Positions 3,580 to 36,416 of a DNA stretch of 64,000 nucleotides are shown piece after piece. The number at the start of each line of letters is the position of its first letter. Position 1 is the first letter of the stretch. The DNA lies in the NCBI GenBank assembly GCA_051294905.1, contig CM119372.1, positions 29,080,001 to 29,144,000 of the forward strand. The letters are read 5' to 3'. The DNA is from Botryllus schlosseri (lineage: Eukaryota). The position numbers were made by a program, and so were the translations under genes. The notes beneath the pieces are model-generated. The model saw only the letters and a program-made list of their open reading frames with translations. It ran no database searches and was not told where the DNA came from.

Positions 3580-3870
3580 TAACAAACCCCTTTTCACTTG
3601 GAAATCTATTTTTGCCCTGGATAACAAACCCCTTTTCACTTGGAAATCTATTTTTGCCCTGGATAACACACCTTTTTCACTTGGAAATATACTTTTTCTC
3701 TGGGTAACAAACCTTTTTCACTTGGAAATATATTTTTTCTCTGGGTAACAAACCTTTTTCACTTGGAAATATATTTTTTCTCTGGGTAACAAACCTTTTT
3801 CACTTGGAAACATATTTTTTCCCTGAGCAACAAACCATTTTCACTGAGCAACAAACCATTTTCACTTGGT
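3580..3870 (+). repeat. ~41-bp minisatellite in element 1 left arm (mirror at ~6990-7280)
   Basis: Tandem units like ACAAACCTTTTTCACTTGGAAATATATTTTTTCTCTGGGTA with no unique spacers. Confidence 0.9.
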
Positions 3871-5186: not shown

Positions 5187-6108
5187 CGCGCTATTACATC
5201 GATATTTCGACACCGTTCACTGATTTATTCGATGGTGTTATCGTGTTGTAACATTACAAGATAGTCATGACCCTATCTGTAGACGGACCACCCAGATCAA
5301 TTGGATACATCGGTCAATATCCATCGTGTTGTCGACACCGAAGTTTTCTGCTGAGACTACAGCGTTTGATCTAGGTGAACTATCGAAGTACGGTGCTCGA
5401 AATGATTGCGATCAGTCTTTCAGTCACGATCAATGGATGTCGCTACTCCCACATAACGACTCCGGATAAATATCGTGCAAATGTCGGACTGATATTGTGA
5501 TCCAATAAGGTGTGTTTCAGTGGAATGAAGACTGCAGTCGTACACCACAATAGAACACTACCTCGCGATTTCACACGCAATCATAAAACACACCTTCGTA
5601 AGCGTCTAGTTCGTCCGGTGACATTTCGTACCGGTCATCGCCACAAGAGAACGGGGTTGGTCTCGTAATATCGGAGCATTTTGAAACTGTCATCACCACA
5701 AGGCTATTGACGTCGATTCAGATGGTCATGTCAATCCGTTTCACAATCCACCGTTTTTCAAGTCCCTGCACCATAGTGTTACGACACAGACAAGAAACGT
5801 CGGTTGAAATAATAAAACACGGGAGGCACACTTTGGTGTTATTTGACATGGATTTTACACCAGACGAACCTCACATTCGAGCGATGAATTGGATTGACGA
5901 TTGTATTATTGACATCGAAGGGAAAGAAATGTATCGATTTATCGGATTCGTACATATCCAACTAAAATCTGGGTATATGATTGTGCATGGTTCGCATATT
6001 TGACTGTGAACGCTCTATTGGTATATGTTGTACAGTTTACTTTCACCGTCGTGCGAATAACCATGTCAAGGTTCCATGTTTTCGTGTCTGTATGTCACGC
6101 TTCAGATT
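5187..6108 (+). other. 922-bp non-palindromic spacer (loop) of element 1
   Basis: Arm symmetry stops exactly at GACTCTGAGTC (ends 5186) and resumes at GACTCAGAGTC (starts 6109). Homologous to the reverse complement of 22835-23789. Confidence 0.9.
5728..6003 (+). CDS. Hypothetical 91-aa protein in the element 1 spacer (MSIRFTIHRFSSPCTIVLRHRQ...)
   Basis: ATG-started ORF with an ungapped, open homologue in the element 2 spacer. No recognisable domain. Confidence 0.4.
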   Translation: MSIRFTIHRFSSPCTIVLRHRQETSVEIIKHGRHTLVLFDMDFTPDEPHIRAMNWIDDCIIDIEGKEMYRFIGFVHIQLKSGYMIVHGSHI

Positions 6109-12100: not shown

Positions 12101-12633
12101 CCAACCTGATACATATTCAACACCGTGCGAGAGATGCATATACCCGAAAGTACGATTCACGACCGCACCCATAAGACACAATAGCCGCATGCGACCGCAC
12201 CCATAAGACGCAATAGCCGCTCGCCACCCCCGCCATAAGACGCAATAGCCGCATGCGACCGCACCCATAAGAACACATGGCGAGTCACCACATATCCCGT
12301 AAGAATACACGGCAGGTGAATCACCGTCACCACCTATAGTAAAAAAAGTACGAGTCACCAACACGAGTTTTCAATACGAGTCACCAACACGAGTTTTCAA
12401 TACGAGTCACCGACGCAGCCTATACCCGAAAGTACGAGTCACCAACACGAGTTTTCAATACGAGTCATCGCCGCAGCCTATACCCGAAAGTACGAATCAC
12501 CAACACACCCATAAGAACACATTACGAATCACGAGCGAGAGGGGGGTCTGAAAGTACGAGTCACCAGCGGAAGGGGGGTCTGAAAGTACGAGTCACCAAC
12601 ACGAGTTTTCAATACGAGTACGGGTAAAGTCAT

Positions 12634-15644: not shown

Positions 15645-16369
15645 GTGCTGACCCAAAACCGAAATTAGCTTCCTACATTATGAACCATTTATTGCCAATG
15701 AGTTGAAGGTAAAGGTGTCATGATAGTCTCAATAAGCGTACTTTCAAACCCCTGATACAAAAATTTCAAAATGTGCTAGAGGTTGTCAAGTCAGGATCCA
15801 GCTATTCCTAATTTGCGTCTTAGTTGTGGCACGCTATAGATTACTTTTCCTTGCACACCTAGTAATTTTTTCTCGTACAATACATATTCCTCTTTCAAAT
15901 AAGAATCCACAGCATAGATGTAAACAAATGTATTTTTAAAATGTAAAATCATTACATTCCCAACACGTAACACCATTGGCTGCTGTCTTGTTAGCGAGCA
16001 GAAATACAAATACAACGCTGCTGATAAATGCGGTCTGCGGTTGAAACTAAACTAATATTGCAAACTTTTTATTTTGGTTTGATGGAAATTCTCTCGTTTT
16101 TGTAAGCTGAAATCAGTGTAGTAAGGATTAACTGTGTTTGTCCGTTTTTGGAGAAGCGGTTCTTGCGGGCTCCGATTGATTTGTTGGAAAATTACAACAA
16201 AAAGGAAGTAGTTGTAAGCGATCCGTAAGTAGTATAGTAGATCGCTCGCGAACGGCCATTGGTTCTTATGGGCGGGGTGGTGACTCGTATTGAAAACCGG
16301 GGGTGGTGACTCGTACTTTCAGACCCCCCTTGTGGTGGTGAGTCGTAATGGGTTCTTATGGACGCGGTC

Positions 16370-16632
16370 GTGATTCGTACTTTCGGGTATAGGCTGTGGC
16401 GGTGACTCGTATTGAAAACTCGGGGTCGTGATTCGTACTTTTGGGTATAGGCTGTGGCGGTGACTCGTATTGAAAACTCGTGGTCGTGATTCGTACTTTT
16501 AGGTATAGGCTGTGGCGGTGACTCGTATTGAAAACTCGGGGTCGTGATTCGTACTTTTGGGTATAGGCTGGGGCGGTGACTCGTATTGAAAACTCGGGTC
16601 GTGATTCGTACTTTTGGGTATAGGCCGCGGTC
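16370..16632 (+). repeat. 58-bp subterminal tandem repeat of element 2 (4 full units left; 2 units in the right arm at ~30022-30136)
   Basis: Unit GTGATTCGTACTTTTGGGTATAGGCTGTGGCGGTGACTCGTATTGAAAACTCGGGGTC. Confidence 0.9.
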
Positions 16633-17040
16633 GTGATTCGCCGTGAAAAGTCGAGGGTGTGACTCGCCTTTTTTGCTATAGGTGGTGGCGGTGATTCGTC
16701 TGTCGTGTATTCTTACAGGGTCTCTACTGATTCACCATGTGTTCTTATGGGCGCGGCGGTGATTCGTACTTTCGAGTATAGGCATCTCTCGCGTGGTGTT
16801 GAATATGTACGAGTCACCAACAATAACCGCACAAACGGAAACGTGGCTTGCAATAGGATTACGCAGTGCGTGCGACCTATATTTCGAATGACCTGCGCGC
16901 TGAATTATTTCCCGTCCAGTCGTGTGCTACTATCGATTATTACACTAATCCATTCAGTGCGAAATAGTTTGCTAAATCTAGGAATCAGTCGCATGGTGTT
17001 ACTTTAGTAATTAGTTTACCACAGAGCCGGCGTAGACGGT

Positions 17041-17322
17041 TGGTTGGTTGGTTTGTGGTATTCATGGTGTTTGTCGACTACTATGGTCATTTACACCAGG
17101 CCGATATTCTTTTTATTTTCCGTAACTGCCGACTTATAGCACGGCCCACCTCTAGGCTTTTGTAAGACACCGCTGACGCGGATGATGTGGCGAGGAGGAG
17201 CCTAGGTAAACCTCCAACACTTAGGTATCGGAATTCGGAAGTCGACCTCGGTCGGACTCGAACCCGCACCCATTGGTGTTGCAGCCGCGGATTATACCAC
17301 TGCGCTATCTCGCCACTATAAA
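17041..17322 (-). mobile_element. tRNA-derived SINE (family A) in the left arm of element 2
   Basis: Mirror image of 29300-29581. A-box TAGCGCAGTGG, B-box GGTTCGAGTCC, (CAAC)n tail, TSD ACCGTCTACGC. Confidence 0.85.
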
Positions 17323-17324
17323 GC

Positions 17325-17640
17325 GTAGACGGTGATTCGAATATCAGCAATAACCACGCTCACAAACTAACAGTTCGAAAAGGTGTGAAATAGTTTGCTA
17401 AATCTGGCACATGGTAATGTTTTGGTAATTAGTTTACCACAGAGCCGGCGTAGACGGTGATTCGAATATCAGCAATAACCACGCTCACAAACTAACAGTT
17501 CGAAAAGGTGTGAAATAGTTTGCTAAATCTGGCACATGGTAATGTTTTGGTAATTAGTTTGTCCCAGAGCCGGCGTAGACGGCGATTCGAATACCAACAA
17601 TAACCACGCTCACAAACTAACACTTCAAATAGGTGTGAAA
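17325..17640 (+). repeat. 125-bp tandem repeat (~2.5 units) in element 2 arm (mirror ~28980-29297)
   Basis: GTAGACGG(T/C)GATTCGAATA... starts at 17325, 17450 and 17575. Confidence 0.85.
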
Positions 17641-20600
17641 TATATAACAAACCCCACGATCACTCACAAGATAACACCTAAGACATAGCCATTTTTCGCG
17701 TCTTACCATTACTTACATCCCAATCGCTACAGTTTAATATGTCGATGGTTTTTACTATCAAGTAATAAGTAATGAATAACCGAACCGGTGCAGACTGTGA
17801 TTCGAAAACCAACAATTTGTCACTTGCACGCGATCGCTATATGTTTTGACACTTCGCACCGTTTTCACATCTATAGAATCAATACCAACTATAATTCTAT
17901 AAGAATCAAGAATCACAAGTATGTGCATTATACAGTTATAGTCTTTATTAACTTGAAATCAACCTCTTAACAAAAACACGCATCTTATCACTCGTCAACT
18001 CTATCATGAAAATCATCGACTCCTTATCATCAAAAATGTTATAGTGCGGCGTCGGAATCCATTCGTGGGGTGTACTAAAGTTAAATCCAGATAATCCAAA
18101 ATGAAATATTTGGACTTTGACATAGTCTGAATTGAAATATATTGACAAACATGACTACCAACTTTGATCCAGTCACATTTCAAGATCGTACTTTGAAACA
18201 ATCCTTGAAACTTACAACTCTATTCACGACTGAGTTTTCCGTTTATCAAATAGAGTTTCAGTAAATACTATCGCGATATTTTAATGTATAGAATCAATCA
18301 ATGAAATAGCACCTGTTGTAAATATTTCTAACTTGACAACCACTTGTGCATACCGCGATCGACTTGTGACGCGATGAGTTAAATCGGAATATTTCAATCT
18401 ATTTGTCGAAACCTTGAACAAACTAGCAGGTTATTTTTTGTTGTAATCGAGTGAACGGAAATAGTATTACGTCTCAACATTTTTTGTTGTAATCGAGTGA
18501 ATGGAAATAGTATTACGTCTCAACATTTTAACATCTTCCCATACACAAAAGAGTAAAATACAAAAAAGCCTTGTCAAGTCAATCCGTTTGTAACTTACCC
18601 AACCAAAGCAAAAAGTATCCTTATGAAAAGTAGACAAGACTACACGAGTAATCACCACAATCCAAAATCCATAGCAAGTTCGGCTGTAGTCATATACCGC
18701 CAAATCATCTTCTTATTTGTTCAACTGTAAAAGTCGTTACTATTCTGTAAGATAAAGTAATTACTACTCGGTATATTTTATAAACCAAAGTAAATACTAC
18801 TCGGTGTGCGGTTTGAGATTACCATATTACATTTTAGTATACGAGATTTGAATATCTGACCAATGTAGTTGAGAATTCATTTCTTACAATCGAACGCAGG
18901 CGTTATCTTGAAAATTTTCACGATGTAAACATATGAATTGACACATTGATTCGACATATGTAATAGTTGATCATGACTTGATTATTAAATTATTTGCGTT
19001 AATTAGACCCCGCGTTGTGGTAAATGTTATGACAACAACAAACTTTTCAGTACCAACGTTATTAACATATTAAGCTGTAAAACTATGTGTGTCTGAAATG
19101 TTCTTGATAGGAAAATTACTCCACCTTGGTAAAATTCACTCTGCGTATCGCGGATATCAGAAAATATTTCCAGTAACCAAGACTAAAGATGAAACGACAA
19201 TATCGGTATTATTACATTCAACAATCAGTACAATTATTAAAATCTATCGTTGTGATAAACAGCACTAAAGATGTAATAATTCCAGTATTCATACATTGAA
19301 CATCCGATACAAAAATGCTTTATTATCCCGATTCCCAACGGGTAATTGAAACGACTAAGTGTAGAATCAGTATATCACAATATCGTTACTATTGAATCCA
19401 ACGATTTATTGTCGGAATTTGTGACAGAGAATTGAAACATATGCACTTTACAGAGTATGAAAATATCACTTTAAGTATCGAGTACCGTTCGAAGCTAGCG
19501 ATCAGTTCTTAATCATTTCAGTAACTCCCCATTGTGCGCGCTAAATGTAAAATATCGCGAGGTTATACACTCTAAGACTTTGATTATTGTAAAAGTAAAT
19601 TGTGATATGTTTGTTAGATGCATCCAATTCAACTAGAAGTGTCTAGTGCCCAACACCCGTAATATCAAAAAAGTACTTGCTACACTGTTATTTGCTAAAC
19701 GTGTTTTGCATTGTTGTTCATTTCTAGTATTGATTGTTCTCGAACCCTCAAATAATAATTCCCGACATGAAACCAAGCCGCTGAAAGTCGTTACCATCAC
19801 GAAGAAACAATGTGTACGATGTTTGTCAAATGTGTCCTACCTGGCCAACAGAAAACAATTTTCACTAGCTTGGTAATGAAACCGAAGTCTCCATTCGATA
19901 TTTTGTTTGTGTCAAATACTTTACAATGAACACATTTGCGTGGTTGAGCTTTACATCATCAAGCTGTTATTTGTAAATCAAGATTTCGGTAAACTTGTAA
20001 ATGTATCGTTTAACTAACCGACATTTAGTGATTGGGGAACACACCAAACGATACACATCCATCTCCATAATACTGCATTGATCTTAATTTCCATCATCGT
20101 GATAATAGAAGTACTTTTGTTTTGAATTCATAACAATCGGCTTTTCTATGACATGATAAATTAGAAGAATTAGAAGATTGGTTGCATATCACTAAAAATA
20201 ATATACCACACATATTATTACTGTTACTCCATTTATCGGTTTTTTTTCCGTTGTCGATTTTCGAACGAGTAAAATTTATTACTTGAGTTGCTCTGCTTAC
20301 TATATTTAAATGTAAACTCGCCCGTCTTTCAACAACAAACAATGTTAAAAAAGTATGCAATCAAACACAACAAGTTTTACGATACTAATTATTATCCCAC
20401 ATAACCCATTTCTTACCGAAGACATATGAAATATATTCATGGTACACAAAAATATTCGCTCATGCTACAAACCTGTACAATGATTGGTGGTGCTTTCAAA
20501 CTGTTTCGATACCTCAAGAACTTTATTGTCTGAATGGTTGTTCATGTATCGTAATAATCAAGTAGTTCAACACAGAACTAGTATTAACAGAAACACCAGA

Positions 20601-21619
20601 GTTGTTGACACAAAAGTTTGTATGTGTACAGTATGCGAATACCATGTGTAAGTCCAGCACAATTGTGGTATCCATACGAGTTTAGTTAACACAATTTACG
20701 ACACCGAGGTCGCCTCATCTTTCGTAAGATAACAAACCAAGGCTTCAGGATATGTCCATGTCATAACAATAAATCAGCTACTCCAACAACAGAGTACAAT
20801 AGTACATATGTTTTCTAGTACGGTGCTTACATCTTACACACAAATCGACCTACTTTGCTAACGAAAAGTGCTGAGTCATCACATGGTTGTCCTCACAACA
20901 ATACAACTAAAACATACTATCATACAAAATGGCCGTTATAGTCACCAATGGTAAATCGTACAAGTAACAAGTCTCGAGAATCCAGTTATTCAAAAAACGT
21001 GAAAGTATTTCTACACCAAGTCGTTATGTTGACGAAGACGTATATTGTAATATCATGATCGATTTGTATTCGTTGACCGCAAAATGTCACTACTCTAAAT
21101 AATTATTTTTCACTCAAACACCAAAACCTACTTGTCGCCATTCGTTTTCATCAAGCACGAGTTCAAGAAACTTACTTACTACGACATGAAATGTTATTTT
21201 ATGTTGTGTAAATAGGTAATAATTAATTCAAGTAACACTATATCAACATCATCGAGCTGTGCGAATAGATTTACATGTGGTCTTGTGGTTTTAATCGAAG
21301 TACACAGTACGGTCTAATGTAGAGTCATCTCTATTGTACAGCAACTCGGTAATCGAAATGCATTAAAATTTAAACAGCGATCTTGTTTCATCACGCGAAA
21401 AATATGTTCACTATCGCTATACTCTGCACAGGACGTGTAAATCCTTTTCACACTCGTAATAGTATACTATTGGCTACCGGCGACAACATTTAACAACACC
21501 AACGACACTAAACATACGATACCTAACCAAGTAAAATTTCCATTTTCACCTGGGGGTCAGCCGTTACCTGAGTAAAAATACCATTATTCTTTGGAGATTT
21601 ATCGTTTAATCAGAGTAAC

Positions 21620-21975
21620 AAAACATTTTCACTTGGGGGTCCATCGTTTCCCAAAGTAACAAGCTCCCTTTCCTTTGGGAATCTATTTTTTCCGTGGGTA
21701 ACAAATCTTTTTCACTTGGAAATATCTTTTTTCCTCGGGTAACAAACCTTATTCGCTTGGAAACATATTTTTTTCCCTGGGTAGCAAACCTTTTTCACTT
21801 GAAAATATATTTTTTCCTCGGGTAACAAACCTTTTTCACTTAGAAATATATTTTTTTCTTCGGGTAACAACCCATTTTCACTTGGAAATATATTTTTATC
21901 CCGAGCAACAAACCTTTTTCACTTGTGAATATATTTTTTTTTCCCTGAACAACAAACCATTTTCACTTGGCGGTC
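21620..21975 (+). repeat. ~41-bp minisatellite in element 2 left arm (mirror ~24650-25000)
   Basis: Same unit family as 3580-3870, more diverged. Confidence 0.85.
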
Positions 21976-22834
21976 CGTCGTTTACTGAGTAAAAATATCA
22001 TTTTCCTTTGGAGATCTGGCGTTTACCCAGTGTAACAACACATTTTCTCTTGGTCATCTAGCTTTTCCTAGAGTAACAAAACCATTTTCATTTTGAAATC
22101 TGACAAACACACCTGACAATTTGATATTTTTTGTATATTGTTACAACGGATAGCGACAAAATATACACCAACAACAACTTCAGTACATTTGTGTAATTGC
22201 ATATTCACTTGTGCTGATGCAACCCATCAAAATCATCGGGTACCCACATGTAATGCGCTGTTGTACATCGACGTTTATGTTTTTGGAAAATTGGACAATA
22301 GGCTTCGATAGTTCTGTGATGTCCGGGCTCGTGCTTTGGATTTTCCAGAGTCAAAATGTCTGAATAAAACACCTCCTTGACGATGGTTGGTATGTGGATA
22401 ACGGTGGTCGGAAAACGGTTGGATTTATGTCACCCATCGCGATAACAATTCCAGGTCGAGTTTTCCCCCGCGTGTTTACTATATTGTGTCTTTATTGGTC
22501 ATGTATGTCTCGACATTCAGTTTGAAATCGGAAACCCTGATAAAGTATGTAACCGGATCCGGATATCAACTCTGAATCGATAAACCAATGAACAATATTC
22601 AAAGTAAACATGTTACACTCAGTGTTTCCACGAAAAAATACCATCCAGACATACGTCGCGCTTGTTTGCCCACATCAGTATACGCGTAAATGGAGGTGTG
22701 TGACATTGCATGCAATGTGTTGGTATACAAACATCGATCCACAGACATTATCATAGCCGGTAGTTTTGATGCAGATCGAATGTCATCACACCCGATAACA
22801 ATACCAATAAGACACATTGCAATGACTCTGAGTC

Positions 22835-23789
22835 AATCTGAAGTATGACATACAGACACACAAACATGGAACCGTAACATGGGTTATTCGCACGACGGTG
22901 AAAGTGAGCTATACAGCATATACCAATAGAGCGTTCACAGTCGAATATGCGAACCACGCACAATCACATACCCTGGTTTTTGTTGGATATGTACGAAACC
23001 AATAAATCGATACATTTCTGTTCCTTCTACGTCAATAATACAAGCGTCATTCCAATGCATCGCTCGAATGTAAGGTTCGTCGGGTGTAAAATCCATGTCA
23101 AATAACACCAAAGTGTGCCTTCCGTGTTTTATTATTTCCACCGTCGAATCTTGTCTGTGTCGTAATACTATGGTGCAGGGACTTGAAAAACTGTACTTTG
23201 TAAAACGGATTGACATGTTCTTCGGTATGACCAACTGAATCGACGTCAATAGCCTTGTGGTGATGACAGTTTCAAAATGCTCCGATATGACGAGACCAAC
23301 GCCGATCTCGCGTGGTGACGACCGTTTTTTGTAATGTTACCGGACGAACTAGACAAACCCTTACGATGGTGTGTTTTATGATTGCGTGTGAAATCACGAG
23401 GTAGTGTTCTATTGTGGTGTACGATTGCAGTTTTCATTCCACTGAAACACACCTTATTGGATCACAATATCAGTCCGACATTTGTAGAATCACTGTTCAC
23501 GATATTTATCTGGAGTCGTTATGTAGGAGTAGCGACATCCATTCATCGTGACTGAAAGACTGATCGCAATCATTTCGAGCACCCGCATTTCGAAAGTTCA
23601 CCTTGGTCAAACGCTGTAGTCTCAGAAGAGAACTTCGGTGTCGACAACACGATGGATATTGACCGATGTATCCAATTGGTCTGGGAGGTCCGTCTGCAGA
23701 TAGGGTCATGACTATCTTGTAATGTTACAACACGATAACACCATCGAATAAATCAGTGAACGGTGTCGAAATATCGATGTAATAGCGAA
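22835..23789 (-). other. 955-bp spacer (loop) of element 2
   Basis: Bounded by GACTCTGAGTC (ends 22834) and GACTCAGAGTC (starts 23790). Reverse-complement homologue of 5187-6108. Confidence 0.9.
22935..23216 (-). CDS. Hypothetical 93-aa protein in the element 2 spacer (MSIRFTKYSFSSPCTIVLRHRQ...)
   Basis: Ungapped homologue of 5728-6003; both frames are open. Confidence 0.4.
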   Translation of the reverse strand: MSIRFTKYSFSSPCTIVLRHRQDSTVEIIKHGRHTLVLFDMDFTPDEPYIRAMHWNDACIIDVEGTEMYRFIGFVHIQQKPGYVIVRGSHIRL

Positions 23790-26700
23790 GACTCAGAGTC
23801 ATTGCAATGTGTCTTATTGGTATTGTTATCGGGTGTGATGACATTCGATCTGCATCAAAACTACCGGCTATGATAATGTCTGTGGTCGATGTTTGTATAC
23901 CAACACATTGCATGCAATGTCACACACCTCCATTTACGCGTATACTGATGTGGGCAAACAAGCGCGACGTATGTCTGGATGGTATTTTTTCGTGGAAACA
24001 CAGAGTGTAACATGTTTACTTTGAATATTGTTCATTGGTTTATCGATTCAGAGTTGATATCCGGATCCGGTTACATACTTTATCAGGGTTTCCGATTTCA
24101 AACTGAATGTCGAGACATACATGACCAATAAAGACACAATATAGTAAACACGCGGGGGAAAACTCGACCTGGAATTGTTATCGCGATGGGTGACATAAAT
24201 CCAACCGTTTTCCGACCACCGTTATCCACATACCAACCATCGTCAAGGAGGTGTTTTATTCAGACATTTTGACTCTGGAAAATCCAAAGCACGAGCCCGG
24301 ACATCACAGAACTATCGAAGCCTATTGTCCAATTTTCCAAAAACATAAACGTCGATGTACAACAGCGCATTACATGTGGGTACCCGATGATTTTGATGGG
24401 TTGCATCAGCACAAGTGAATATGCAATTACACAAATGTACTGGAGTTGTTGTTGGTGTATATTTTGTCGCTATCCGTTGTAACAATATACAAAAAATATC
24501 AAATTGTCAGGTGTGTTTGTCAGATTTCAAAATGAAAATGGTTTTGTTACTCTAGGAAAAGCTAGATGACCAAGAGAAAATGTGTTGTTACACTGGGTAA
24601 ACGCCAGATCTCCAAAGGAAAATGATATTTTTACTCAGTAAACGACGGACCGCCAAGTGAAAATGGTTTGTTGTTCAGGGAAAAAAAATATATTCACAAG
24701 TGAAAAAGGTTTGTTGCTCGGGATAAAAATATATTTCCAAGTGAAAATGGGTTGTTACCCGAAGAAAAAAATATATTTCTAAGTGAAAAAGGTTTGTTAC
24801 CCGAGGAAAAAATATATTTTCAAGTGAAAAAGGTTTGCTACCCAGGGAAAAAAATATGTTTCCAAGCGAATAAGGTTTGTTACCCGAGGAAAAAAGATAT
24901 TTCCAAGTGAAAAAGATTTGTTACCCACGGAAAAAATAGATTCCCAAAGGAAAGGGAGCTTGTTACTTTGGGAAACGATGGACCCCCAAGTAAAAATGTT
25001 TTGTTACTCTGATTAAACGATAAATCTCCAAAGAATAATGGTATTTTTACTCAGGTAACGGCTGACCCCCAGGTGAAAATGGAAATTTTACTTGGTTAGG
25101 TATCGTATGTTTAGTGTCGTTGGTGTTGTTAAATGTTGTCGCCGGTAGCCAATAGTATACTATTACGAGTGTGAAAAGGATTTACACGTCCTCTGCAGAG
25201 TATAGCGATAGTGAACATATTTTTCGCGTGATGAAACAAGATCGCTGTTTAAATTTTAATGCATTTCGATTACCGAGTTGCTGTACAATAGAGATGACTC
25301 TACATTAGACCGTACTGTGTACTTCGATTAAAACCACAAGACCACATGTAAATCTATTCGCACAGCTCGATGATGTTGATATAGTGTTACTTGAATTAAT
25401 TATTACCTATTTACACAACATAAAATAACAATTCATGTCGTAGTAAGTAAGTTTCTTGAACTCGTGCTTGATGAAAACGAATGGCGACAAGTAGGTTTTG
25501 GTGTTTGAGAGAAAAATAATTATTTAGAGTAGTGACATTTTGCGGTCAACGAATACAAATCGATCATGATATTACAATATACGTCTTCGTCAACATAACG
25601 ACTTGGTGTAGAAATACTTTCACGTTTTTTGAATAACTGGATTCTCGAGACTTGTTACTTGTACGATTTACCATTGGTGACTATAACGGCCATTTTGTAT
25701 GATAGTATGTTTTAGTTGTATTGTTGTGAGGACAACCATGTGATGACTCAGCACTTTTCGTTAGCAAAGTAGGTCGATTTGTGTGTAAGATGTAAGCACC
25801 GTACTAGAAAACATATGTACTATTGTACTCTGTTGTTGGAGTAGCTGATTTATTGTTATGACATGGACATATCCTGAAGCCTTGGTTTGTTATCTTACGA
25901 AAGATGAGGCGACCTCGGTGTCGTAAATTGTGTTAACTAAACTCGTATGGATACCACAATTGTGCTGGACTTACACATGGTATTCGCATACTGTACACAT
26001 ACAAACTTTTGTGTCAACAACTCTGGTGTTTCTGTTAATACTAGTTCTGTGTTGAACTACTTGATTATTACGATACATGAACAACCATTCAGACAATAAA
26101 GTTCTTGAGGTATCGAAACAGTTTGAAAGCACCACCAATCATTGTACAGGTTTGTAGCATGAGCGAATATTTTTGTGTACCATGAATATATTTCATATGT
26201 CTTCGGTAAGAAATGGGTTATGTGGGATAATAATTAGTATCGTAAAACTTGTTGTGTTTGATTGCATACTTTTTTAACATTGTTTGTTGTTGAAAGACGG
26301 GCGAGTTTACATTTAAATATAGTAAGCAGAGCAACTCAAGTAATAAATTTTACTCGTTCGAAAATCGACAACGGAAAAAAAACCGATGAATGGAGTAACA
26401 GTAATAATATGTGTGGTATATTATTTTTAGTGATATGCAACCAATCTTCTAATTCTTCTAATTTATCATGTCATAGAAAAGCCGATTGTTATGAATTCAA
26501 AACAAAAGTACTTCTATTATCACGATGATGGAAATTAAGATCAATGCAGTATTATGGAGATGGATGTGTATCGTTTGGTGTGTTCCCCAATCACTAAATG
26601 TCGGTTAGTTAAACGATACATTTACAAGTTTACCGAAATCTTGATTTACAAATAACAGCTTGATGATGTAAAGCTCAACCACGCAAATGTGTTCATTGTA

Positions 26701-29299
26701 AAGTACTTGACACAAACAAAATATCGAATGGAGACTTCGGTTTCATTACCAAGCTAGTGAAAATTGTTTTCTGTTGGCCAGGTAGGACACATTTGACAAA
26801 CATCGTACACATTGTTTCTTCGTGATGGTAACGACTTTCAGCGGCTTGGTTTCATGTCGGGAATTATTATTTGAGGGTTCGAGAACAATCAATACTAGAA
26901 ATGAACAACAATGCAAAACACGTTTAGCAAATAACAGTGTAGCAAGTACTTTTTTGATATTACGAGTGTTGGGCACTAGACACTTCTAGTTGAATTGGAT
27001 GCATCTAACAAACATATCACAATTTACTTTTGCAATAATCAAAGTCTTAGAGTGTATAACCTCGCGATATTTTACATTTAGCGCGCACAATGGGGAGTTA
27101 CTGAAATGATTAAGAATTGATCGCTAGCTTCGAACGGTACTCGATACTTAAAGTGATATTTTCATACTCTGTAAAGTGCATATGTTTCAATTCTCTGTCA
27201 CAAATTCCGACAATAAATCGTTGGATTCAATAGTAACGATATTGTGATATACTGATTCTACACTTAGTCGTTTCAATTACCCGTTGGGAATCGGGATAAT
27301 AAAGCATTTTTGTATCGGATGTTCAATGTATGAATACTGGAATTATTACATCTTTAGTGCTGTTTATCACAACGATAGATTTTAATAATTGTACTGATTG
27401 TTGAATGTAATAATACCGATATTGTCGTTTCATCTTTAGTCTTGGTTACTGGAAATATTTTCTGATATCCGCGATACGCAGAGTGAATTTTACCAAGGTG
27501 GAGTAATTTTCCTATCAAGAACATTTCAGACACACATAGTTTTACAGCTTAATATGTTAATAACGTTGGTACTGAAAAGTTTGTTGTTGTCATAACATTT
27601 ACCACAACGCGGGGTCTAATTAACGCAAATAATTTAATAATCAAGTCATGATCAACTATTACATATGTCGAATCAATGTGTCAATTCATATGTTTACATC
27701 GTGAAAATTTTCAAGATAACGCCTGCGTTCGATTGTAAGAAATGAATTCTCAACTACATTGGTCAGATATTCAAATCTCGTATACTAAAATGTAATATGG
27801 TAATCTCAAACCGCACACCGAGTAGTATTTACTTTGGTTTATAAAATATACCGAGTAGTAATTACTTTATCTTACAGAATAGTAACGACTTTTACAGTTG
27901 AACAAATAAGAAGATGATTTGGCGGTATATGACTACAGCCGAACTTGCTATGGATTTTGGATTGTGGTGATTACTCGTGTAGTCTTGTCTACTTTTCATA
28001 AGGATACTTTTTGCTTTGGTTGGGTAAGTTACAAACGGATTGACTTGACAAGGCTTTTTTGTATTTTACTCTTTTGTGTATGGGAAGATGTTAAAATGTT
28101 GAGACGTAATACTATTTCCATTCACTCGATTACAACAAAAAATGTTGAGACGTAATACTATTTCCGTTCACTCGATTACAACAAAAAATAACCTGCTAGT
28201 TTGTTCAAGGTTTCGACAAATAGATTGAAATATTCCGATTTAACTCATCGCGTCACAAGTCGATCGCGGTATGCACAAGTGGTTGTCAAGTTAGAAATAT
28301 TTACAACAGGTGCTATTTCATTGATTGATTCTATACATTAAAATATCGCGATAGTATTTACTGAAACTCTATTTGATAAACGGAAAACTCAGTCGTGAAT
28401 AGAGTTGTAAGTTTCAAGGATTGTTTCAAAGTACGATCTTGAAATGTGACTGGATCAAAGTTGGTAGTCATGTTTGTCAATATATTTCAATTCAGACTAT
28501 GTCAAAGTCCAAATATTTCATTTTGGATTATCTGGATTTAACTTTAGTACACCCCACGAATGGATTCCGACGCCGCACTATAACATTTTTGATGATAAGG
28601 AGTCGATGATTTTCATGATAGAGTTGACGAGTGATAAGATGCGTGTTTTTGTTAAGAGGTTGATTTCAAGTTAATAAAGACTATAACTGTAAAATGCACA
28701 TACTTGTGATTCTTGATTCTTATAGAATTATAGTTGGTATTGATTCTATAGATGTGAAAACGGTGCGAAGTGTCAAAACATATAGCGATCGCGTGCAAGT
28801 GACAAATTGTTGGTTTTCGAATCACAGTCTGCACCGGTTCGGTTATTCATTACTTATTACTTGATAGTAAAAACCATCGACATATTAAACTGTAGCGATT
28901 GGGATGTAAGTAATGGTAAGACGCGAAAAATGGCTATGTCTTAGGTGTTATCTTGTGAGTGATCGTGGGGTTTGTTATATATTTCACACCTATTTGAAGT
29001 GTTAGTTTGTGAGCGTGGTTATTGTTGGTATTCGAATCGCCGTCTACGCCGGCTCTGGGACAAACTAATTACCAAAACATTACCATGTGCCAGATTTAGC
29101 AAACTATTTCACACCTTTTCGAACTGTTAGTTTGTGAGCGTGGTTATTGCTGATATTCGAATCACCGTCTACGCCGGCTCTGTGGTAAACTAATTACCAA
29201 AACATTACCATGTGCCAGATTTAGCAAACTATTTCACACCTTTTCGAACTGTTAGTTTGTGAGCGTGGTTATTGCTGATATTCGAATCACCGTCTACGC

Positions 29300-29581
29300 T
29301 TTATAGTGGCGAGATAGCGCAGTGGTATAATCCGCGGCTGCAACACCAATGGGTGCGGGTTCGAGTCCGACCGAGGTCGACTTCCGAATTCCGATACCTA
29401 AGTGTTGGAGGTTTACCTAGGCTCCTCCTCGCCACATCATCCGCGTCAGCGGTGTCTTACAAAAGCCTAGAGGTGGGCCGTGCTATAAGTCGGCAGTTAC
29501 GGAAAATAAAAAGAATATCGGCCTGGTGTAAATGACCATAGTAGTCGACAAACACCATGAATACCACAAACCAACCAATCA
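29300..29581 (+). mobile_element. tRNA-derived SINE (family A) in the right arm of element 2
   Basis: Pol III A/B boxes; TSD ACCGTCTACGC (29289-29299, 29582-29592); an independent copy of the family lies at 59894-60157. Confidence 0.85.
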
Positions 29582-30899
29582 ACCGTCTACGCCGGCTCTG
29601 TGGTAAACTAATTACTAAAGTAACACCATGCGACTGATTCCTAGATTTAGCAAACTATTTCGCACTGAATGGATTAGTGTAATAATCGATAGTAGCACAC
29701 GACTGGACGGGAAATAATTCAGCGCGCAGGTCATTCGAAATATAGGTCGCACGCACTGCGTAATCCTATTGCAAGCCACGTTTCCGTTTGTGCGGTTATT
29801 GTTGGTGACTCGTACATATTCAACACCACGCGAGAGATGCCTATACTCGAAAGTACGAATCACCGCCGCGCCCATAAGAACACATGGTGAATCAGTAGAG
29901 ACCCTGTAAGAATACACGACAGACGAATCACCGCCACCACCTATAGCAAAAAAGGCGAGTCACACCCTCGACTTTTCACGGCGAATCACGACCGCGGCCT
30001 ATACCCAAAAGTACGAATCACGACCCGAGTTTTCAATACGAGTCACCGCCCCAGCCTATACCCAAAAGTACGAATCACGACCCCGAGTTTTCAATACGAG
30101 TCACCGCCACAGCCTATACCTAAAAGTACGAATCACGACCGCGTCCATAAGAACCCATTACGACTCACCACCACAAGGGGGGTCTGAAAGTACGAGTCAC
30201 CACCCCCGGTTTTCAATACGAGTCACCACCCCGCCCATAAGAACCAATGGCCGTTCGCGAGCGATCTACTATACTACTTCCGTAAACTAGGAAAAACGAG
30301 TTTGCGGGTCAATTGGATGCACCTAGCACCTAGTGTAAGAGTGAGAGTGCCCAATGAACGGCGCAGCAATAGGCAGTACGCCTGTGGTTTGCCCCGCTGC
30401 TCACTTACTCCTGAGCTCCGGCATCATTATTCAAGATGGCAAACTCCGTCACAATGCAAAATTCGAGGATGAGTTAGGGTGTTCCAGAGCCACTAGCAGA
30501 ATAAAATATATGTTTTGTAATCAGTACCGCGGTAGCTTTAGATTGATGTCAATTTTATCAATTTTCGAGCTCGGAAAACCAGCCTAAATAGTATCGTACA
30601 TTTACTTTGATCAAATGGAGAGAATGACTTTACTCCCTCACAGTGATTTGCTTGTGTCTACGCCACCGCAGGGCACTGTGGTATAGGACACTACGATGAT
30701 ATGATTTGAGCGTGGATCAATGTGAAGTGCACATGAAAATGTTTGACACGCATGCTTCTCATATATTGAAATCTGCCAAACGGAAGAGAAAAGACTACAA
30801 ACCTCTGGTCTCGATTAATAACACAATCAGCTTAAAATGACGTCACAGGCATGATTTGGATTTTCATCAAATTTGGTGATACTATTGTTGGTATACAAC

Positions 30900-31592: not shown

Positions 31593-33053
31593 TATACAAC
31601 GTTCACTAGTATACTAAGCAAGTTGCTGCCGAGTGGTAGCAAAAATATTCGAGTCTATTTCAATATGAATATATTCTTCAATTGATTATAATATATAGCA
31701 GGGGTCGGGAACCTATGGCTCTTTTGTTGATATATTATGGCTCTCCGATATATTTTCAATTCGACACTTGGTTTGCTTCTTATTTATTAATGTTTCTGCA
31801 ACATATTTAAAATTTTCATGACGGCGAGATTCCTTACTCTGATTGCAGCCGAAACAAGTGTATGCGTGATCGAGACAATGTAAAATATCCGGGGTTTTAG
31901 GGCTCGGAATAAGCCTATTCAAAATCCCAAACCTTATGTTGGATATTGCCTGCTGATGATTGTTCATTTGAATCAGTCCATTATAATAGTTCATTTCTAA
32001 AATAGGTCAACACGGTTATTTAGGGACCCACACTGAATACATTTTTTCGTCGGGTTCGATGCAGAGTTGTGTGATTGCAAATATGAGGTTAAGGACGAGT
32101 TGGCAACCAATATATCGCGCAACAATTCGCCGTGCCGACGTCGCGCGCATTGATAAGTTGGATTGCACGATGCTTTGATTGAGCGGAGAGACAATAGACA
32201 AGCCGAAGCCCCTGTGACGATGCAGTTTTCAAATCTACGTTGTTAATATTATTATTATTCAAATGCACATTGTCTTTTTGATCATCGGTGAGAAATGAAC
32301 TCCCTTGGAAGATGCATCCCTTCAAAAACGTGCCCGACTCTTGATGTATGGTATAATTATCTGTTATTTCGATATTCCGATTTAACTCGCCAGGCAACGA
32401 TGATCCGAGTAGGCCCTATACTCCAATCGGAAACGAGTATTCATTGTAATGATTCCTGGCGAATAGCAAGAGACCGCTTTTCGATACTGAAATTATTCGC
32501 CCTTGTTCACTAGGAGCTATATTTTTTCCGACGATGCTTCGAAAACAAAATTGGTCGTCCGAAAGCTTCTAAAATATGTCGTACAAAGCAACGCTTGCTT
32601 GTTGGAATGAAATTTCTGTGACGTCGCGATCAACCAACCGCACTGTCACAAAGTGTAATGAAATAAGTATGACCAACGAAATTCCCAAATTATCTTTATG
32701 TGATGTAGAAATGGTATTATTTTCTTTATTTTTATATAAAAGATACATATTCGATCATTCGACATCATTCATATTGCTATGATTTAAAATGAGCGATACT
32801 AGAATACTCGACTTGATTCGACACCTAATACCCGCTTCGAAATTGGTCGTGATTGCTAACCAGCCGTTACTCAAAGTACGAATTACTGACGAGATCACAG
32901 TTACGAATTTCGAGCTGTTTGAGTTGTGAAATGCAAGTGGATTTGTGAAAATCTGCTATGCTGCATGTAGTGATGGCACCTCGACACCATGAAAGCTGAT
33001 ATTACGGGGATAATAGGGCTCCCCAGGAATAAAATCGAAAATATAGTCCGAAT

Positions 33054-33488
33054 ATGACTCCTTTGACGAAGAAGGTTTCCGATCCCTGGACTCGCCTCGA
33101 TTTATTAAAATTTCAAGGCATCGTGAAGAAAGAAAACGAGGATACAAAGAAAGTTGTTATGGATGTCTGTAAAGCGATCGGGGAAAGATTGGACGAAGAG
33201 GACCTATTATTATGCTATCGTAAACCTCTCCGATATGCTACAAAAACGTCCCCTATCATGGTGAAATTCCTAGATCGAACTATCCGAGATGAGATCTACT
33301 TTGCAAGATTGAAACTTCGCGACGTTTCGAGCGCAAAGCTGGAAAATGCCAGCTCAATCTTCATCGCGGAAAATCTTCCCGAGAGGACCCTGAAGTTATT
33401 GTATGACGCCCGTCAACTGAAAAAGAAGCAAACATTTGATTTCCTTTGGACAAGACATGGGAAGATCTGGGCAAAAAAAGAACGTTGA
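33054..33488 (+). pseudogene. LINE ORF1 fragment
   Basis: PIMVKF..R..RDEIY, IFIAENL, FLWTRHGKIW motifs typical of invertebrate CR1/L2 ORF1 C-termini. Confidence 0.7.
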
Positions 33489-33608
33489 CTCATCAGCATT
33501 TCTAATCGAAAAACATAGTGATCTACAGAAGATCCTGTGAGCAACTATTCTCCCTCACGCAACCTATTCATAGTAAGCGCATTATTTTTCATTTTTTCAT
33601 TCATTATT

Positions 33609-36416
33609 ATGCCTTTGCCCCACTATTCCTTTGATCTTGCTAGTAGGCGACATGACAAACACAATTTCAATGCCACGGACTGTCTGCAACCTCAATCAGA
33701 CCCCCATGAAGGTGCTGATTTGTCCCCAGAAAGCTTCAACTTTAACAATGTCAAGAAATGTGAATATGTTTGCCTAGATAAATCGACTGATATCCTAACA
33801 GGATCCTCCAACCCAGATCGATTCACAATATCTCATTTTAATATGAGATCCCTCAAGAAGAACCATGATGATCTTTCTGAAATCATAACGTCGCTGAATA
33901 GTATGCATAATTCCATTGCTATTTCTGAGACCAAACTCCAATCTGATCCGACTTCTAATATAGCATTGGATGGATATACGTTCCTTTACTCACTGACCCG
34001 TTCCAATGCGGGCGGGGTAGGTCTCTATATCAAATCTAATCTGCGATTCACTGTGCTAACGGCCTATAATCTTGCGTATCGAGACTGTCAGCAGCTATGG
34101 GTCAATTTGGAAGATTTCCAGAATAACAGGTCCCTAATCATTGCGATCATTTATAGACACCCTAGATCTAGGGTGGATGATGTCACCGAATTCACAGAAG
34201 AAAAATGAATCGAGCCTTGTGTAAAATTAACGAAAAGTCGAACGATTATTTCAACATTGGAGATCTTAATGTTAACCTCAAAGCAATAAATAGCTCGACT
34301 GTGAACCGATATATCAATATGTTACGATGCTGTACCTTCGTACCATTAATTTCCCTACCGACTAGGTATTCGGACAGTTCTAGTACTCTTCTTGACCATA
34401 TTTACACGAATTTATCCACCCGGGAAATTCAACCGTGTGTGTGCTCATATGTAATATCTGACCACTTGCCTGTTTTTGCGATAGTTGATTTGAGAACTTG
34501 CAAATGTAAACCCTTGCATTATTATAAACGTGACCTCGATGGTATTGATCCTTCCCGTTTAACAATCGAATCTCATTATGTGTTCTCTAGATTATTTGAC
34601 AAACCCTTAACCTTGAGTAATTTTGAAGCATACTTCGATGCTTCCAAGAATGCCATTGACGAGTTATTGAACAGTCATGGCCCTCCGATCACAGTCAGCA
34701 GGCGCGACCGTAAATTACTCCGCAAACCTTGGATATCGAAAGGTATTCTGGTCTCTATCAGACAGCGTAACATAATGCATTATCCTCTTTTTGTTAAGGG
34801 CAATGCTGAGCATAGAAAATTTTATAAAACTTACTCGAATAAGTTAACTCGTGTCAAAAGAAAGCCTGAGGAAAACTATTTCTTGAAAGCTTTCCTAGAG
34901 AATAGAAACAATCCGAAAAAGAGGTGGAAAATGATCAACAGTATGATTCATAGGGATTCTAAAACCTCGAGTAAGCATTTGAGTATCACTGATTCGACTG
35001 GCGAGATGATGATTACCCCGGGTGAGATTGCTGAATCGTTTTTTCGACTATTTTTGCACGTTAAGTCCATCGCTGGCGCGCGAATTGCCTGGAATTAATT
35101 AGTCCGTACATCTCTTCACTAGTTTGCAAGATATTCAACTTCTGTATAAATAATGGAATCTTTCCGAACCCCCTAAAAATAGCAAGGAGATGACACCAAC
35201 AGAAGTAACTACAGATCAATTTCTGTACTACCAACCATGGCTAAAGTGTTCGAAAAGCTAGTCCATATGAGGTTGATAAATTTCCTTGATAAAGAAGAAA
35301 TTCTGTCGAAACATCAATTTGGTTTTCGGGAAGGATTCAATACCTACCAAGCAATTCTCGATGTGACGGAGAAATACTATAAGGTAATTGAGCGAAACAA
35401 AGTGGCATGTAGTATATTCCTTGATCTCAAGAAAGCGTTTGATACCGTTGATCATGACATCCTTCTTGCCAAGTTATCGGCCTGCGGTATCAGGGGTGTT
35501 GCCAATGACCTTTTCAGATCTTATTTGAGCAATAGATCTCAATGTGTCGATATCGGTGGCATCAACTCGTCGCCTAGCGCCATACGATGCGGTGTCCCTC
35601 AAGGGTCTGTTCTTGGTCCGACATTGTTCCTGATATATATCAACGACCTAGCTAAATCCACATCGCTGGAAACCACCCTATTTGCTGATGACACGCACCT
35701 CTTCGTCTCATCAGATGACGTTGAAGAGCTCAATGCGAAGCTTATTAGGGATATGACTTTGGTATCAAAGTGGATGTGTGTAATAAATTAACACTGGATG
35801 CTGCCAAAACCCAGATTATATTCATTAGTAGCACCATAAGTACTAGAGAATATCGCACTGTTAGTGTAATGGTAAATGATAACACGATAAACCCTTCTAT
35901 GTTTGCAAAATATCTTGGCATATTCATTGATAGCGATCTATCCTGGAACGACCATGACCAGAATCTAGCGGTTAAACTCTCCCGTGGCGTTGGCATCTTA
36001 CGGCGCCTTAGACATGTAGTTGCGAAGACCGTGCTCCGAGAAGTGTATTTTGCAATGGTTCACAGTCACTTGCAATATGGAATTTTGAGTTGGGGCTTCT
36101 GCTTTGCATCCAATACAGGTGATACAAAACAACGCCATTCGCGCTCCTACGGGATCATTTCGATGTAATCTTGAGAAGTCATATCGGGAGTGGAGAATAT
36201 TGAAAGTAGAAGAAATTAAATAACTGGAAGTAGCTAAATTCATGTATCGATTTCACAATAAACAGCTTGCCTTTAGTTTGGAGGATCAATTACAACTATC
36301 AACATCCACCCATAGTCATAATACCAGATTTTCAGCCACACCAAATTACCGCCACAATTTCGTAAGGAAGGAATTCTGCAAACGATCTCTTTTGATAGCC
36401 AGTCCCAACATCTGAA
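33609..36416 (+). pseudogene. LINE ORF2: apurinic-like endonuclease plus reverse transcriptase, frameshifted
   Basis: APE motifs FNMRSL, IAISETKL, GGVGLYI, IYRHP, GDLN, LLDHIY, SDHLPV; RT motifs QFGFR, FLDLKKAFDTVDH, GVPQGSVLGP, FADDT, KYLGIFID. Split over several frames. Confidence 0.92.

Follow-up and report, generated by a model that had tools for sequence, protein, structure and literature searches.

The window analysed here, a stretch of 64,000 nucleotides from Botryllus schlosseri, contains an insertion of 14,051 bp (Table 1) whose left end opens with AGTAGTATAGTAG at 16228 and whose right end closes with CTACTATACTACT at 30278. The AGTAGT...ACTACT termini and the exact 6-bp target site duplication (TSD) TCCGTA described in the first-pass annotation were both borne out by the letters, the duplication directly abutting the two ends. 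In the left terminus AGTAGT is followed by seven variable bases, GATCG, a variable segment (positions 18-38) and then the conserved CTTATGGGCGGGGTGGTGACTCGTA; the window contains two occurrences of the 28-nt terminus, one per strand, against none expected (100 shuffles). Short-read contigs from two DNA runs end at 16225/16228 and resume at 30279, that is, at the borders of the element.

About 93% of the element is self-complementary. Three inverted segments came out of the repeat search, two of them (5,466 nt and 803 nt) printed as 100% and the third (257 nt) at 98%; self-comparison by blastn aligned 16388-22834 with 30239-23790 at 99.27% identity over 6,453 columns. In the global alignment 13 substitutions, one 116-bp indel and two 1-bp indels separated the arms, the 116-bp indel being equal to two units of the 58-bp subterminal repeat; the arm lengths of 6,607 and 6,489 bp and the 955-bp loop given earlier proved to be exact. 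RNA reads with leaders resembling a cap-switch oligo begin at 29306 and 17316, inside the SINE-like inserts of the arms.

Table 1. Features of the palindromic element and of its relatives in the window
Feature	Position	Strand	Remarks
Neighbouring palindromic copy, ~85% identical to the element	1-12620	.	Cut by the left edge of the window
Left TSD copy, TCCGTA	16222-16227	.	Same hexamer at 30279-30284
Whole element, 14,051 bp	16228-30278	.	Ends, TSD, blastn, short-read contig borders
Left arm, 6,607 bp	16228-22834	+	Repeat search, blastn, global alignment
Left Polinton-type terminus	16228-16580	+	Matches termini of gene-bearing copies (89%, ~350 bp)
Subterminal 58-bp tandem repeats, 5.8 units	16366-16699	.	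GTGAYTCGTA-type motifs in each unit
SINE-like insert, tRNA-derived, 282 bp, left arm	17041-17322	-	Mirrors 29300-29581
125-bp tandem repeat, 2.6 units	17323-17642	.	Mirror copy at 28980-29299
41/83-bp tandem repeat array, inner arm	21675-21970	.	Mirror copy at 24653-24947
Central loop, 955 bp, non-palindromic	22835-23789	.	End-to-end homologous in 7 copies
Right arm, 6,489 bp	23790-30278	-	Repeat search, blastn, global alignment
SINE-like insert, right arm	29300-29581	+	Own 11-bp duplication ACCGTCTACGC at 29289-29299 and 29582-29592
Right-end 58-bp array, 3.8 units	29923-30140		Tandem repeat search
Right TSD copy, TCCGTA	30279-30284	.	Matches 16222-16227
Third family end, AGTAGTTATTATGATCGG...	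48966-50219	+	~1.3 kb of diverged subterminal homology

The element was said to be gene-less, and no recognisable gene could be found in it: the 44 frames of at least 55 aa in the left arm and loop gave no Pfam match at E<=0.01, tblastn with the helper ORFs (see below) detected nothing in this copy, and neither an Rfam match nor a tRNA call was obtained within the element. In particular, a protein-primed polymerase (PF03175) and an rve integrase were not found in the element by the Pfam search of the frames or by tblastn. The accompanying statement that no ORF exceeds ~105 aa was slightly off, since stop-to-stop frames of 179, 133 and 126 aa exist; the longest of them (16192-16731, minus strand) crosses the 58-bp repeats and overruns the end of the element, and the 133-aa frame is located in the loop. 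The two relatives announced in the same window are also there, namely a second palindrome at the left edge, with arms (1-4303 and 6557-10866) 98.4% identical and a 426-bp insertion on one arm only, and the third family end.

The element belongs to a large family. A strict end pattern had 144 matches in the genome (control 0) and a looser one 2,278 matches in 495 Mb (1,145 plus, 1,133 minus; controls 0 and 1). An inner-arm 26-mer matched 1,625 times (control 0), and 84 of the first 100 matches listed formed 42 convergent pairs ~1.9 kb apart; the most conserved 27-mer of the loop was found 380 times with at most 2 mismatches (control 0). On contig C1, 35 end pairs were paired by hand: at least two arm motifs lay inside 22 of them, one motif inside 5, an integrase match inside 2 and nothing inside 5, and 21 of the 35 measured 12.8-15.5 kb. 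As a rough estimate, ~800 centres of ~13.5 kb would make up roughly 2% of the genome. The full sequence was read for 16 copies out of roughly 1,100, chosen non-randomly from the best matches and by size, and a 6-bp TSD was present in all 15 full copies (13 exact, 2 with one mismatch), including two gene-bearing ones. The expectation that other copies would have both the TSD and long arms held entirely for the former and for the most part for the latter: 10 of the 13 fetched non-autonomous copies have arms of 4.1-7.4 kb with 96.3-99.94% identity, and three are single-armed, their terminal inverted repeats (TIRs) measuring 0.9-1.6 kb and their junctions differing from one another, and may be deletion products or relics of a pre-palindrome stage. 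Identity among copies ranges from 72 to 92%, and recent movement is visible at 20 other loci, where 3.4 kb of one member recurs with 99-100% identity, with both arms at 16 of them. The family is mobile and multi-copy, and the palindromic form is copied to new sites; the description of a gene-less element with Polinton-type ends and a 6-bp TSD was upheld.

An autonomous Polinton with the same termini had been proposed as an object to look for, and gene-bearing copies were indeed detected in the same genome, which share the first ~50-350 bp of their ends and the 6-bp duplication with the element. The ends of the element are 89% identical over ~350 bp to C4:15128927-15143965 and C2:32706338-32728126, the same terminal motif set is found on three integrase-linked copies, and one of these, L057, has an end with exactly the same bases at positions 14-56. 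The C4 helper has 15,039 bp, the TSD TACATC and a 601-bp TIR; its 1,298-aa frame matches PF03175 (32.4 bits, cut-off 25.8), its integrase has rve (2e-16) and Chromo (2e-9) domains, and the matches of its A32-like ATPase to Pox_A32/AAA are weak. For a 423-aa protein a double jelly roll was predicted (pLDDT 93), and the predicted fold matches capsid proteins of iridovirus, PBCV-1, Sputnik and mavirus (E 3.5e-17 to 1e-12), so that on structural modelling it is a predicted double-jelly-roll capsid protein. The helper integrase has 93 genomic matches of at least 91% identity, most of them with an open 359-aa frame, and at least three further integrase groups exist in the genome (49-66% identity).

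Based on the termini shared with a gene-bearing Polinton, the same TSD length and the signs of movement, we consider it likely that the element is a copy of a very abundant, non-coding, non-autonomous Polinton/Maverick derivative of the same genome. It retains the cis-acting ends of its helper, namely ~50 bp at the terminus together with the subterminal repeats; its inverted repeats have expanded to ~6.5 kb apiece, with a conserved loop of ~0.95 kb between them; and its 6-bp flanking duplications, as in gene-bearing Polintons, are of the retroviral-type integrase kind. We infer that it is replicated and integrated in trans, the terminal-protein/polymerase and the integrase of the helper acting on the shared ends.

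The two arms of a copy evolve in concert by arm-to-arm copying. In the tree of the inner 708 bp the arms were sisters or identical in all nine copies, and the seven differences between two young copies, compared over 1.5 kb, were all symmetric on both arms. The SINE-like insert with its own 11-bp duplication is present on both arms of the 16228-30278 copy and absent from the other 12 non-autonomous copies, the empty site being visible in seven; its junction 31-mer has just two genomic occurrences, both within the arms of this copy. Two routes may equalise the arms: the displaced single strand could fold back as a 6.5-kb hairpin, in the manner of the panhandle step of protein-primed replication, or gene conversion could take place between the arms in the chromosome. 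For the 16228-30278 copy, conversion in the chromosome is slightly favoured over replication. A distance of 3-4% separates the element from its reciprocal nearest relative, whereas within each of them the arms are at least 99.75% alike, and the assembly contains no donor of the SINE-bearing form; against conversion, arm identity falls to 96.3% in some copies, and insertions confined to one arm have survived (6.3 kb in C7:7839750-7859735, 426 bp in the neighbouring copy).

Symmetrisation coupled to replication only, where each round of protein-primed replication goes through a self-folded single strand or a true copy-back, so that the arms are identical when the element inserts and afterwards only decay in the chromosome, has in our judgement somewhat less than an even chance. 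It is in line with the TIRs of the gene-bearing copies, which are likewise concerted (99.3% and 98.5% identical within a copy versus 84.5% between the two copies), with the terminal 70 nt, in which the two ends of a copy agree fully in 10 cases out of 14 despite the strong variation of positions 7-13 and 18-38 between copies, and with the young subfamily of near-identical palindromes at 20 loci; the arms that have drifted to 96.3-97.7% and the remaining one-sided insertions also speak for it. However, the arms of the element differ by 0.2% and the nearest relative in the assembly is 3-4% off, and the same is true of that relative. In addition, the SINE junction is confined to the 16228-30278 copy in the assembly, therefore a donor must have been lost or excised, or be missing from this haplotype, and this in more than one lineage.

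The first-pass annotation saw in the element a candidate copy-back defective Polinton genome, and repeated direct snap-back or copy-back formation from a helper Polinton would indeed account for ~93% self-complementarity, the missing coding capacity and the helper-type ends; the architecture fits the definition of snap-back defective genomes in an excerpt of PMC13506859. Near full-length self-complementarity without coding capacity is present, but the arms are not the folded-back terminal part of a helper genome, because the two gene-bearing copies compared, both from one Polinton family, have no more than the terminal ~350-1,100 bp in common with them, and helper-ORF tblastn of 12 non-autonomous copies revealed no gene remnants except one terminal ORF piece in one copy. 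We infer a non-Polinton origin for the ~5.5-kb interior of the arm. Nor does each copy arise de novo and turn around at a site of its own: among 7 copies the loops can be aligned over their full length with 82-93% identity, the arm-loop junctions are conserved, and lineages diverged by up to 28% all keep the palindrome. From the end-to-end alignment of the loops it follows that the palindrome formed about once and has been transposed as such, rather than being remade from the helper each time. The strict snap-back reading is thus largely refuted, and repeated formation from the helper is very improbable.

Even less credible is a foldback transposon of an unrelated superfamily with merely Polinton-like ends, which would likewise show long inverted arms, tandem subrepeats and no genes, as foldback-type elements do: the termini are those of gene-bearing Polintons of the same genome, both in the 89% identity and in the identical positions 14-56, the TSD is 6 bp in every full copy, and the copies examined yielded no other transposase. 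The chance that the structure was created during assembly, for example by a chimeric fold-back read, is negligible, for although the locus was examined in the assembly and in short-read contigs that end at its borders, dozens of loci show this architecture, each with a TSD of its own, substitutions and indels separate the arms, some copies have one-sided insertions, and the palindromes fall into diverged lineages.

Returning to the non-autonomous Polinton derivative, its palindrome might further reflect how a satellite has adapted to its helper virus, serving hairpin self-repair or competition as well as packaging length, which we regard as rather unlikely. The displaced strand would fold at once into a 6.5-kb hairpin and rebuild the duplex origin, which would make the element a self-repairing satellite and a strong competitor for the helper polymerase. 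A one-armed element of ~6.6-8 kb would have doubled to a 13-15-kb palindrome, about the length of the helper (15-17 kb), and would then fit the helper capsid; the size class of 12.8-15.5 kb among the C1 end pairs is also of note with regard to packaging length. The hypervariable subterminal segments, which agree between the two ends of a copy and of which the same alleles were found on gene-bearing and palindromic copies, could stem from an arms race over origin recognition. To our knowledge, the mode of Polinton replication and the formation of particles by animal Polintons have so far been inferred from gene content alone; if the satellite view is true, the family would document in chromosomes, for the first time, a defective-interfering-type parasite of Polintons, and would point indirectly to virions made by the Polintons of this genome.

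Hundreds of gene-less palindromic passengers beside ~100 gene-bearing helpers with the same ends represent a natural experiment. The passengers reveal which sequences suffice in cis, the symmetric substitutions and the symmetric private SINE give a clean readout of arm-to-arm copying, and the narrow length range of the passengers near the helper size bears on a possible packaging limit. A share of roughly 2% of the genome matters for annotating and assembling the genome studied here and those of related animals, in which elements of this kind would be filed under unknown foldback repeats.

Autonomous Polintons/Mavericks were reportedly described by Kapitonov and Jurka in 2006. They share the AGT-type end motif, the TIRs and the 6-bp TSD with the element, but have genes, whereas the element has none and carries TIRs of ~6.5 kb (~93% of its length), in a family with a copy number far above that of the gene-bearing Polinton copies. 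For vertebrate Mavericks, excerpts of PMC8097293 (Barreat and Katzourakis 2021) give an AGT- or AG-type end motif with a 6-bp TSD and a TIR range of 46-1,447 bp, and one of PMC10748475 (Jeong et al. 2023) a TIR range of 100-1,500 bp. Non-autonomous Polintons of Repbase, cited by names such as Polinton-N1A_NV in an excerpt of PMC11296320, are gene-poor with Polinton ends like our element, as compared by name and kind. The name Polinton-1N1 also came up as a match in the literature search. This search, which left Repbase/Dfam aside, yielded no description of a palindromic non-autonomous Polinton or of one at hundreds of copies.

In the FB-type elements of Drosophila, a short middle lies between very long inverted arms with tandem subrepeats; these elements lack coding capacity, and their TSD is 9 bp. 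The likeness of foldback transposons to our element is one of form only (long inverted arms, internal tandem repeats), since the element has Polinton ends, a 6-bp TSD, arms of mostly unique sequence instead of repeat arrays and, presumably, a protein-primed polymerase and an integrase as its machinery. Defective adenovirus genomes with large inverted duplications are said to have been described in papers by Daniell. Snap-back defective viral genomes are characterised in an excerpt of PMC13506859 as nearly fully self-complementary, non-coding and dependent on a helper for replication. Both kinds resemble the element in near-complete self-complementarity and lack of coding, its helper dependence being the presumed one. 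Unlike these by-products of one infection, the element has arms which are not helper sequence, and it is heritable, chromosomal and present in hundreds of copies. In the palindromes of the primate Y chromosome, arm-to-arm gene conversion keeps the arms alike. Although immobile and without transposon ends or TSDs, these palindromes have in common with the element a short spacer and arms that are far more alike than their age predicts.

The palindromic element was found exactly where the first-pass annotation had placed it, with the TCCGTA hexamer directly outside both of its ends; it starts at 16228 with AGTAGTATAGTAGATCGC and finishes at 30278 with the reverse complement of this sequence. The 28-nt terminus had two sites in the window, at the element ends only, and none in 100 shuffles. 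The inverted arms claimed by the annotation proved to be real both by repeat search and by global alignment, in which the left arm of 6,607 nt and the right arm of 6,489 nt were separated by 13 substitutions and 3 indels, one of 116 bp, which spans two copies of a subterminal 58-bp repeat unit, and two of a single base. An upper limit of about 105 aa had also been given for the ORFs, which did not hold, as the frames reached 179 aa from stop to stop; nevertheless none of them matched Pfam (0 of 44 frames of at least 55 aa in one arm plus the loop), and neither the Rfam nor the tRNA scan made a call in the element. A conserved ORF in the loop was considered and rejected: in seven copies the longest loop frames were of 133, 140, 77, 80, 114, 114 and 103 aa, at shifting positions. 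Contigs of short reads from two DNA runs broke exactly at 16225/16228 and 30279; on the evidence of these contigs, which are too short to span the structure, an assembly artefact is very unlikely for this copy.

Coordinates of the features in the window (plain numbers) and of family copies elsewhere in the assembly (prefixed with the contig)
Feature	Coordinates	Length	Remarks
Loop of the window element	22835-23789	955 bp	no self-complementarity
Insert taken to be tRNA-derived and SINE-like	17041-17322 and 29300-29581	282 bp	mirror positions; own 11-bp duplication ACCGTCTACGC
Further copy of the SINE	59913-60153
Loop 27-mer	22881-22907
Family end, window example	16228-16297	70 nt	compared with retrieved ends L031-L060
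Neighbouring palindromic copy	1-12620		about 3.6 kb from the window element; right end without a clean AGTAGT terminus
One-sided segment of the neighbouring copy	4304-4729	426 bp
Two non-LTR retrotransposon remnants	33033-35791 and 44127-46930
Gene-bearing copy (helper)	C4:15128927-15143965	15,039 bp	TSD TACATC; 601-bp TIRs, 99.3% identical
Gene-bearing copy, degraded (L031-L033)	C2:32706338-32728126	21.8 kb	782-bp TIRs; many frames
Inverted repeats in the degraded copy	element 6523-6780 and 9087-9345	258 bp	enclose an extra ~2.8 kb
Helper candidate by size, rejected	C7:7839750-7859735	20 kb	palindromic; one arm holds a 6.3-kb insertion
Three members, apparently nested	G000:C1:16768420-16810257		end pairs of 41.8, 28.7 and 14.7 kb with 6, 4 and 2 arm motifs
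Nearest relative of the window copy	C4:5077348-5093142

One of the non-LTR remnants carried RVT_1 frames (1.4e-30) together with a weak endonuclease match and a Baculo_FP_2nd match, and in the second a 596-aa frame combined an endonuclease with the start of RVT_1.

The element belongs to a large family. When its first 300 bp were searched against the assembly (495.5 Mb, 219 contigs), many contigs gave matches on both strands, paired at distances of 7-22 kb. Sixteen full copies were read, a non-random selection by best match and size, and a 6-bp TSD was present in the window copy and in all 15 others, exact in 13 and with one mismatch in 2 of the 15 tabulated. Ten of the 13 non-autonomous copies were palindromic; their arms measured 4.1-7.4 kb, were 96.3-99.94% identical to each other and flanked a loop of 0.9-2.1 kb. 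The remaining three were one-armed forms with TIRs of 0.9-1.6 kb and three different junctions, and may either have arisen from palindromes by deletion or represent relics of an earlier stage.

Genome-wide pattern counts, each paired with a reversed-pattern control, gave 144 matches for the strict end pattern (control 0), 2,278 for a looser one (controls 0 and 1), 1,625 for an inner-arm 26-mer with at most 2 mismatches (control 0) and 380 for the loop 27-mer (control 0). Among the first 100 listed arm-motif matches, 84 fell into 42 convergent pairs with a spacing of about 1.9 kb, as expected at the centre of a palindrome, and 16 were single. On contig C1, where 35 end pairs were matched by hand, at least two arm motifs were enclosed in 22, one in 5, an integrase match in 2 and none of these marks in 5; 21 of the 35 pairs were 12.8-15.5 kb long. 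Larger candidate end pairs, of 29 kb and 39 kb, were seen on contig C6. Since the architecture of paired ends, TSDs and convergent motifs recurs in many copies, an assembly artefact is excluded as the source of the family. Besides the apparently nested members on C1, further long end pairs also enclose two centres, self-insertion being frequent in the palindrome family. The loop 27-mer was also unevenly distributed between the strands, with 161 plus and 219 minus matches in the whole genome (two-sided binomial p = 0.0034) and 2 plus and 14 minus among the 16 exact matches on C1.

Within the first 70 nt of the family ends, positions 7-13 and 18-38 were hypervariable at fixed length (the heptamer at positions 7-13 occurred in 8 different versions among 14 copies), and positions 1-6, 13-17 and 39-70 were near-invariant. 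The two ends of one copy agreed, with no mismatch over these 70 nt in 10 of 14 copies, and the variable alleles were common to gene-bearing and palindromic copies.

End pairs of the size expected for a gene-bearing Polinton were mostly not helpers, as the pair on contig C7 illustrates. The degraded copy on C2 had two in-frame stops in its polymerase-homologous frame and an integrase frame of 223 aa instead of the usual 359, and against Pfam and PHROGs its ORFs matched only rve and, weakly, an ATPase; the extra segment between its inverted repeats looks like a nested insertion. A genome search with its integrase returned 93 matches of at least 91% identity, most with an open 359-aa frame, and several of these lie between family ends. 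Further groups in the same search, at about 65% (384-aa open frames), 54% (339 aa) and 49% (354 aa), indicate that the genome contains several families, Polintons or other carriers of integrase, in which many copies are open.

A gene-bearing Polinton with the same termini, of the kind the annotation had proposed to look for, is present on contig C4 at one of these 93 integrase matches. Over its first ~350 bp it matches the window element's ends at 89% identity. Among its products, a 1,298-aa frame scores above the curated threshold of PF03175 (DNA_pol_B_2), the 359-aa integrase combines an rve with a chromo domain, a P-loop ATPase of 215 aa matches Pox_A32 and AAA weakly, and a 423-aa protein is capsid-like. 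The predicted fold of the latter (pLDDT 93.2 from an alignment with 61 relatives, 30 from the single sequence) resembles major capsid proteins of the double-jelly-roll type, namely those of an iridovirus, PBCV-1, Sputnik and mavirus, at E-values from 3.5e-17 to 1e-12. No protease or minor capsid protein was identified in this copy, and phmmer of its polymerase frame against the PDB sequences found no match; a whole-genome search with PF03175 was silent, as were its controls, and carries no weight, since the 1,298-aa frame matches that family directly. Three further integrase-linked copies begin with the same set of terminal motifs, and one of them agrees base for base with the window element at positions 14-56. 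The ends and the TSD of the palindromes are therefore those of resident Polintons, and the doubt whether an unrelated foldback family is at work is thereby removed.

The annotation had read the element as a copy-back product of such a helper. In its strict form, with the arms as a helper end folded back anew each time, this reading fails: the palindromic copies share with the two gene-bearing copies only the terminal ~350-1,100 bp at the DNA level, and the only trace that tblastn of all helper frames of at least 100 aa left in the non-autonomous copies was a remnant of a terminal ORF, in a single copy. With no sequence of these two gene-bearing copies beyond the termini, the arms are not a folded-back helper end. 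Moreover, the loops of seven copies could be aligned over their full length with 82-93% identity, thus the arm-loop junctions were inherited; in a second, deeper clade the loop differs in part, with ~240 bp in common. The palindrome therefore formed about once, two times at most, and has been copied as a palindrome since then. It was also shown that this copying is still ongoing: within one subfamily, 3.4 kb of one member recurs at 20 other loci with 99-100% identity, and both arms were evident at 16 of them (39 candidates scored).

The two arms evolve in concert, as arm identity was 72-92% between copies versus 96.3-99.94% within them. A likelihood tree built from the inner 708 bp showed both arms as sisters, or as identical, in all nine palindromic copies, in eight with strong support or identity, and in 1.5 kb of two young copies all 7 differing sites were symmetric, both arms of one against both arms of the other. 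The SINE-like insert, which we so named by eye from box-A- and box-B-like motifs (ARAGORN and Rfam made no call), provides a marker of this process. It was absent from the other 12 non-autonomous copies, in 7 of which the site was empty, with an overlap of 10-11 bp as is expected of an unfilled target, and its 31-nt junction had two sites in the whole genome, both within the window copy. Mirror positions, an own duplication and a private junction demonstrate that a single insertion was transferred from one arm onto the other.

In two raw RNA runs (~6% and ~13% of the reads examined, likeness at least 97%) reads lay almost only over the SINE segment, at a depth of about 5-19 against at most 3 elsewhere, apart from slight coverage of the loop in one run. 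In both runs reads started at 29306 and 17316, the first bases of the SINE, behind leaders resembling a cap-switching oligo, therefore the SINE family is transcribed; since it is a separate high-copy family, this signal says little about transcription of the palindrome.

How the arms are equalised can be explained in two ways. Large sex-chromosome palindromes undergo arm-to-arm gene conversion, and the same might occur between the arms of an inserted copy. The window copy and its nearest relative on C4 are reciprocal nearest relatives at 96-97%, each with arms at least 99.75% alike, and the SINE-bearing form has no donor anywhere in the assembly, both of which favour conversion in the chromosome; in some palindromes, however, the arms are only 96-98% alike and one-sided insertions are kept. 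These latter copies are what decay after insertion would give if equalisation took place during replication. As established for adenovirus, the inverted ends of a strand displaced in protein-primed replicons pair into a panhandle; here a displaced single strand could form a hairpin of 6.5 kb, and mismatches and loop-outs within it could be repaired. Replication would also account for the helper TIRs, which are likewise concerted (99.3% and 98.5% within copies versus 84.5% between them), and replication alone would suffice if the donors had been lost, excised or were absent from the sequenced haplotype. For the window copy we lean slightly towards conversion in the chromosome, at little better than even chances, with replication a little short of even; both may act.

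A bolder proposal, which we regard as rather improbable, is that the palindrome is an adaptation to the helper. Every strand would then be self-templating, the doubled length of the C1 pairs, near the 15-17 kb of the helper, would be what a capsid limit demands, and the hypervariable subterminal segments might be the trace of a contest over origin recognition.

Names for non-autonomous Polintons are already in print; the full-text search, with Repbase, Dfam and supplements outside it, returned no palindromic or highly amplified non-autonomous Polinton. Published texts on Polintons describe AGT end motifs and 6-bp TSDs, with TIRs of 46-1,447 bp (PMC8097293) or 100-1,500 bp (PMC10748475). The window element has the same AGT-type ends and the same 6-bp TSD, but it is gene-less and its TIRs are 4-5 times longer than the longest in these texts. 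It is similar in form to foldback transposons and to the snap-back defective genomes, as the latter are presented in PMC13506859, whereas the defining content of either is lacking from it.
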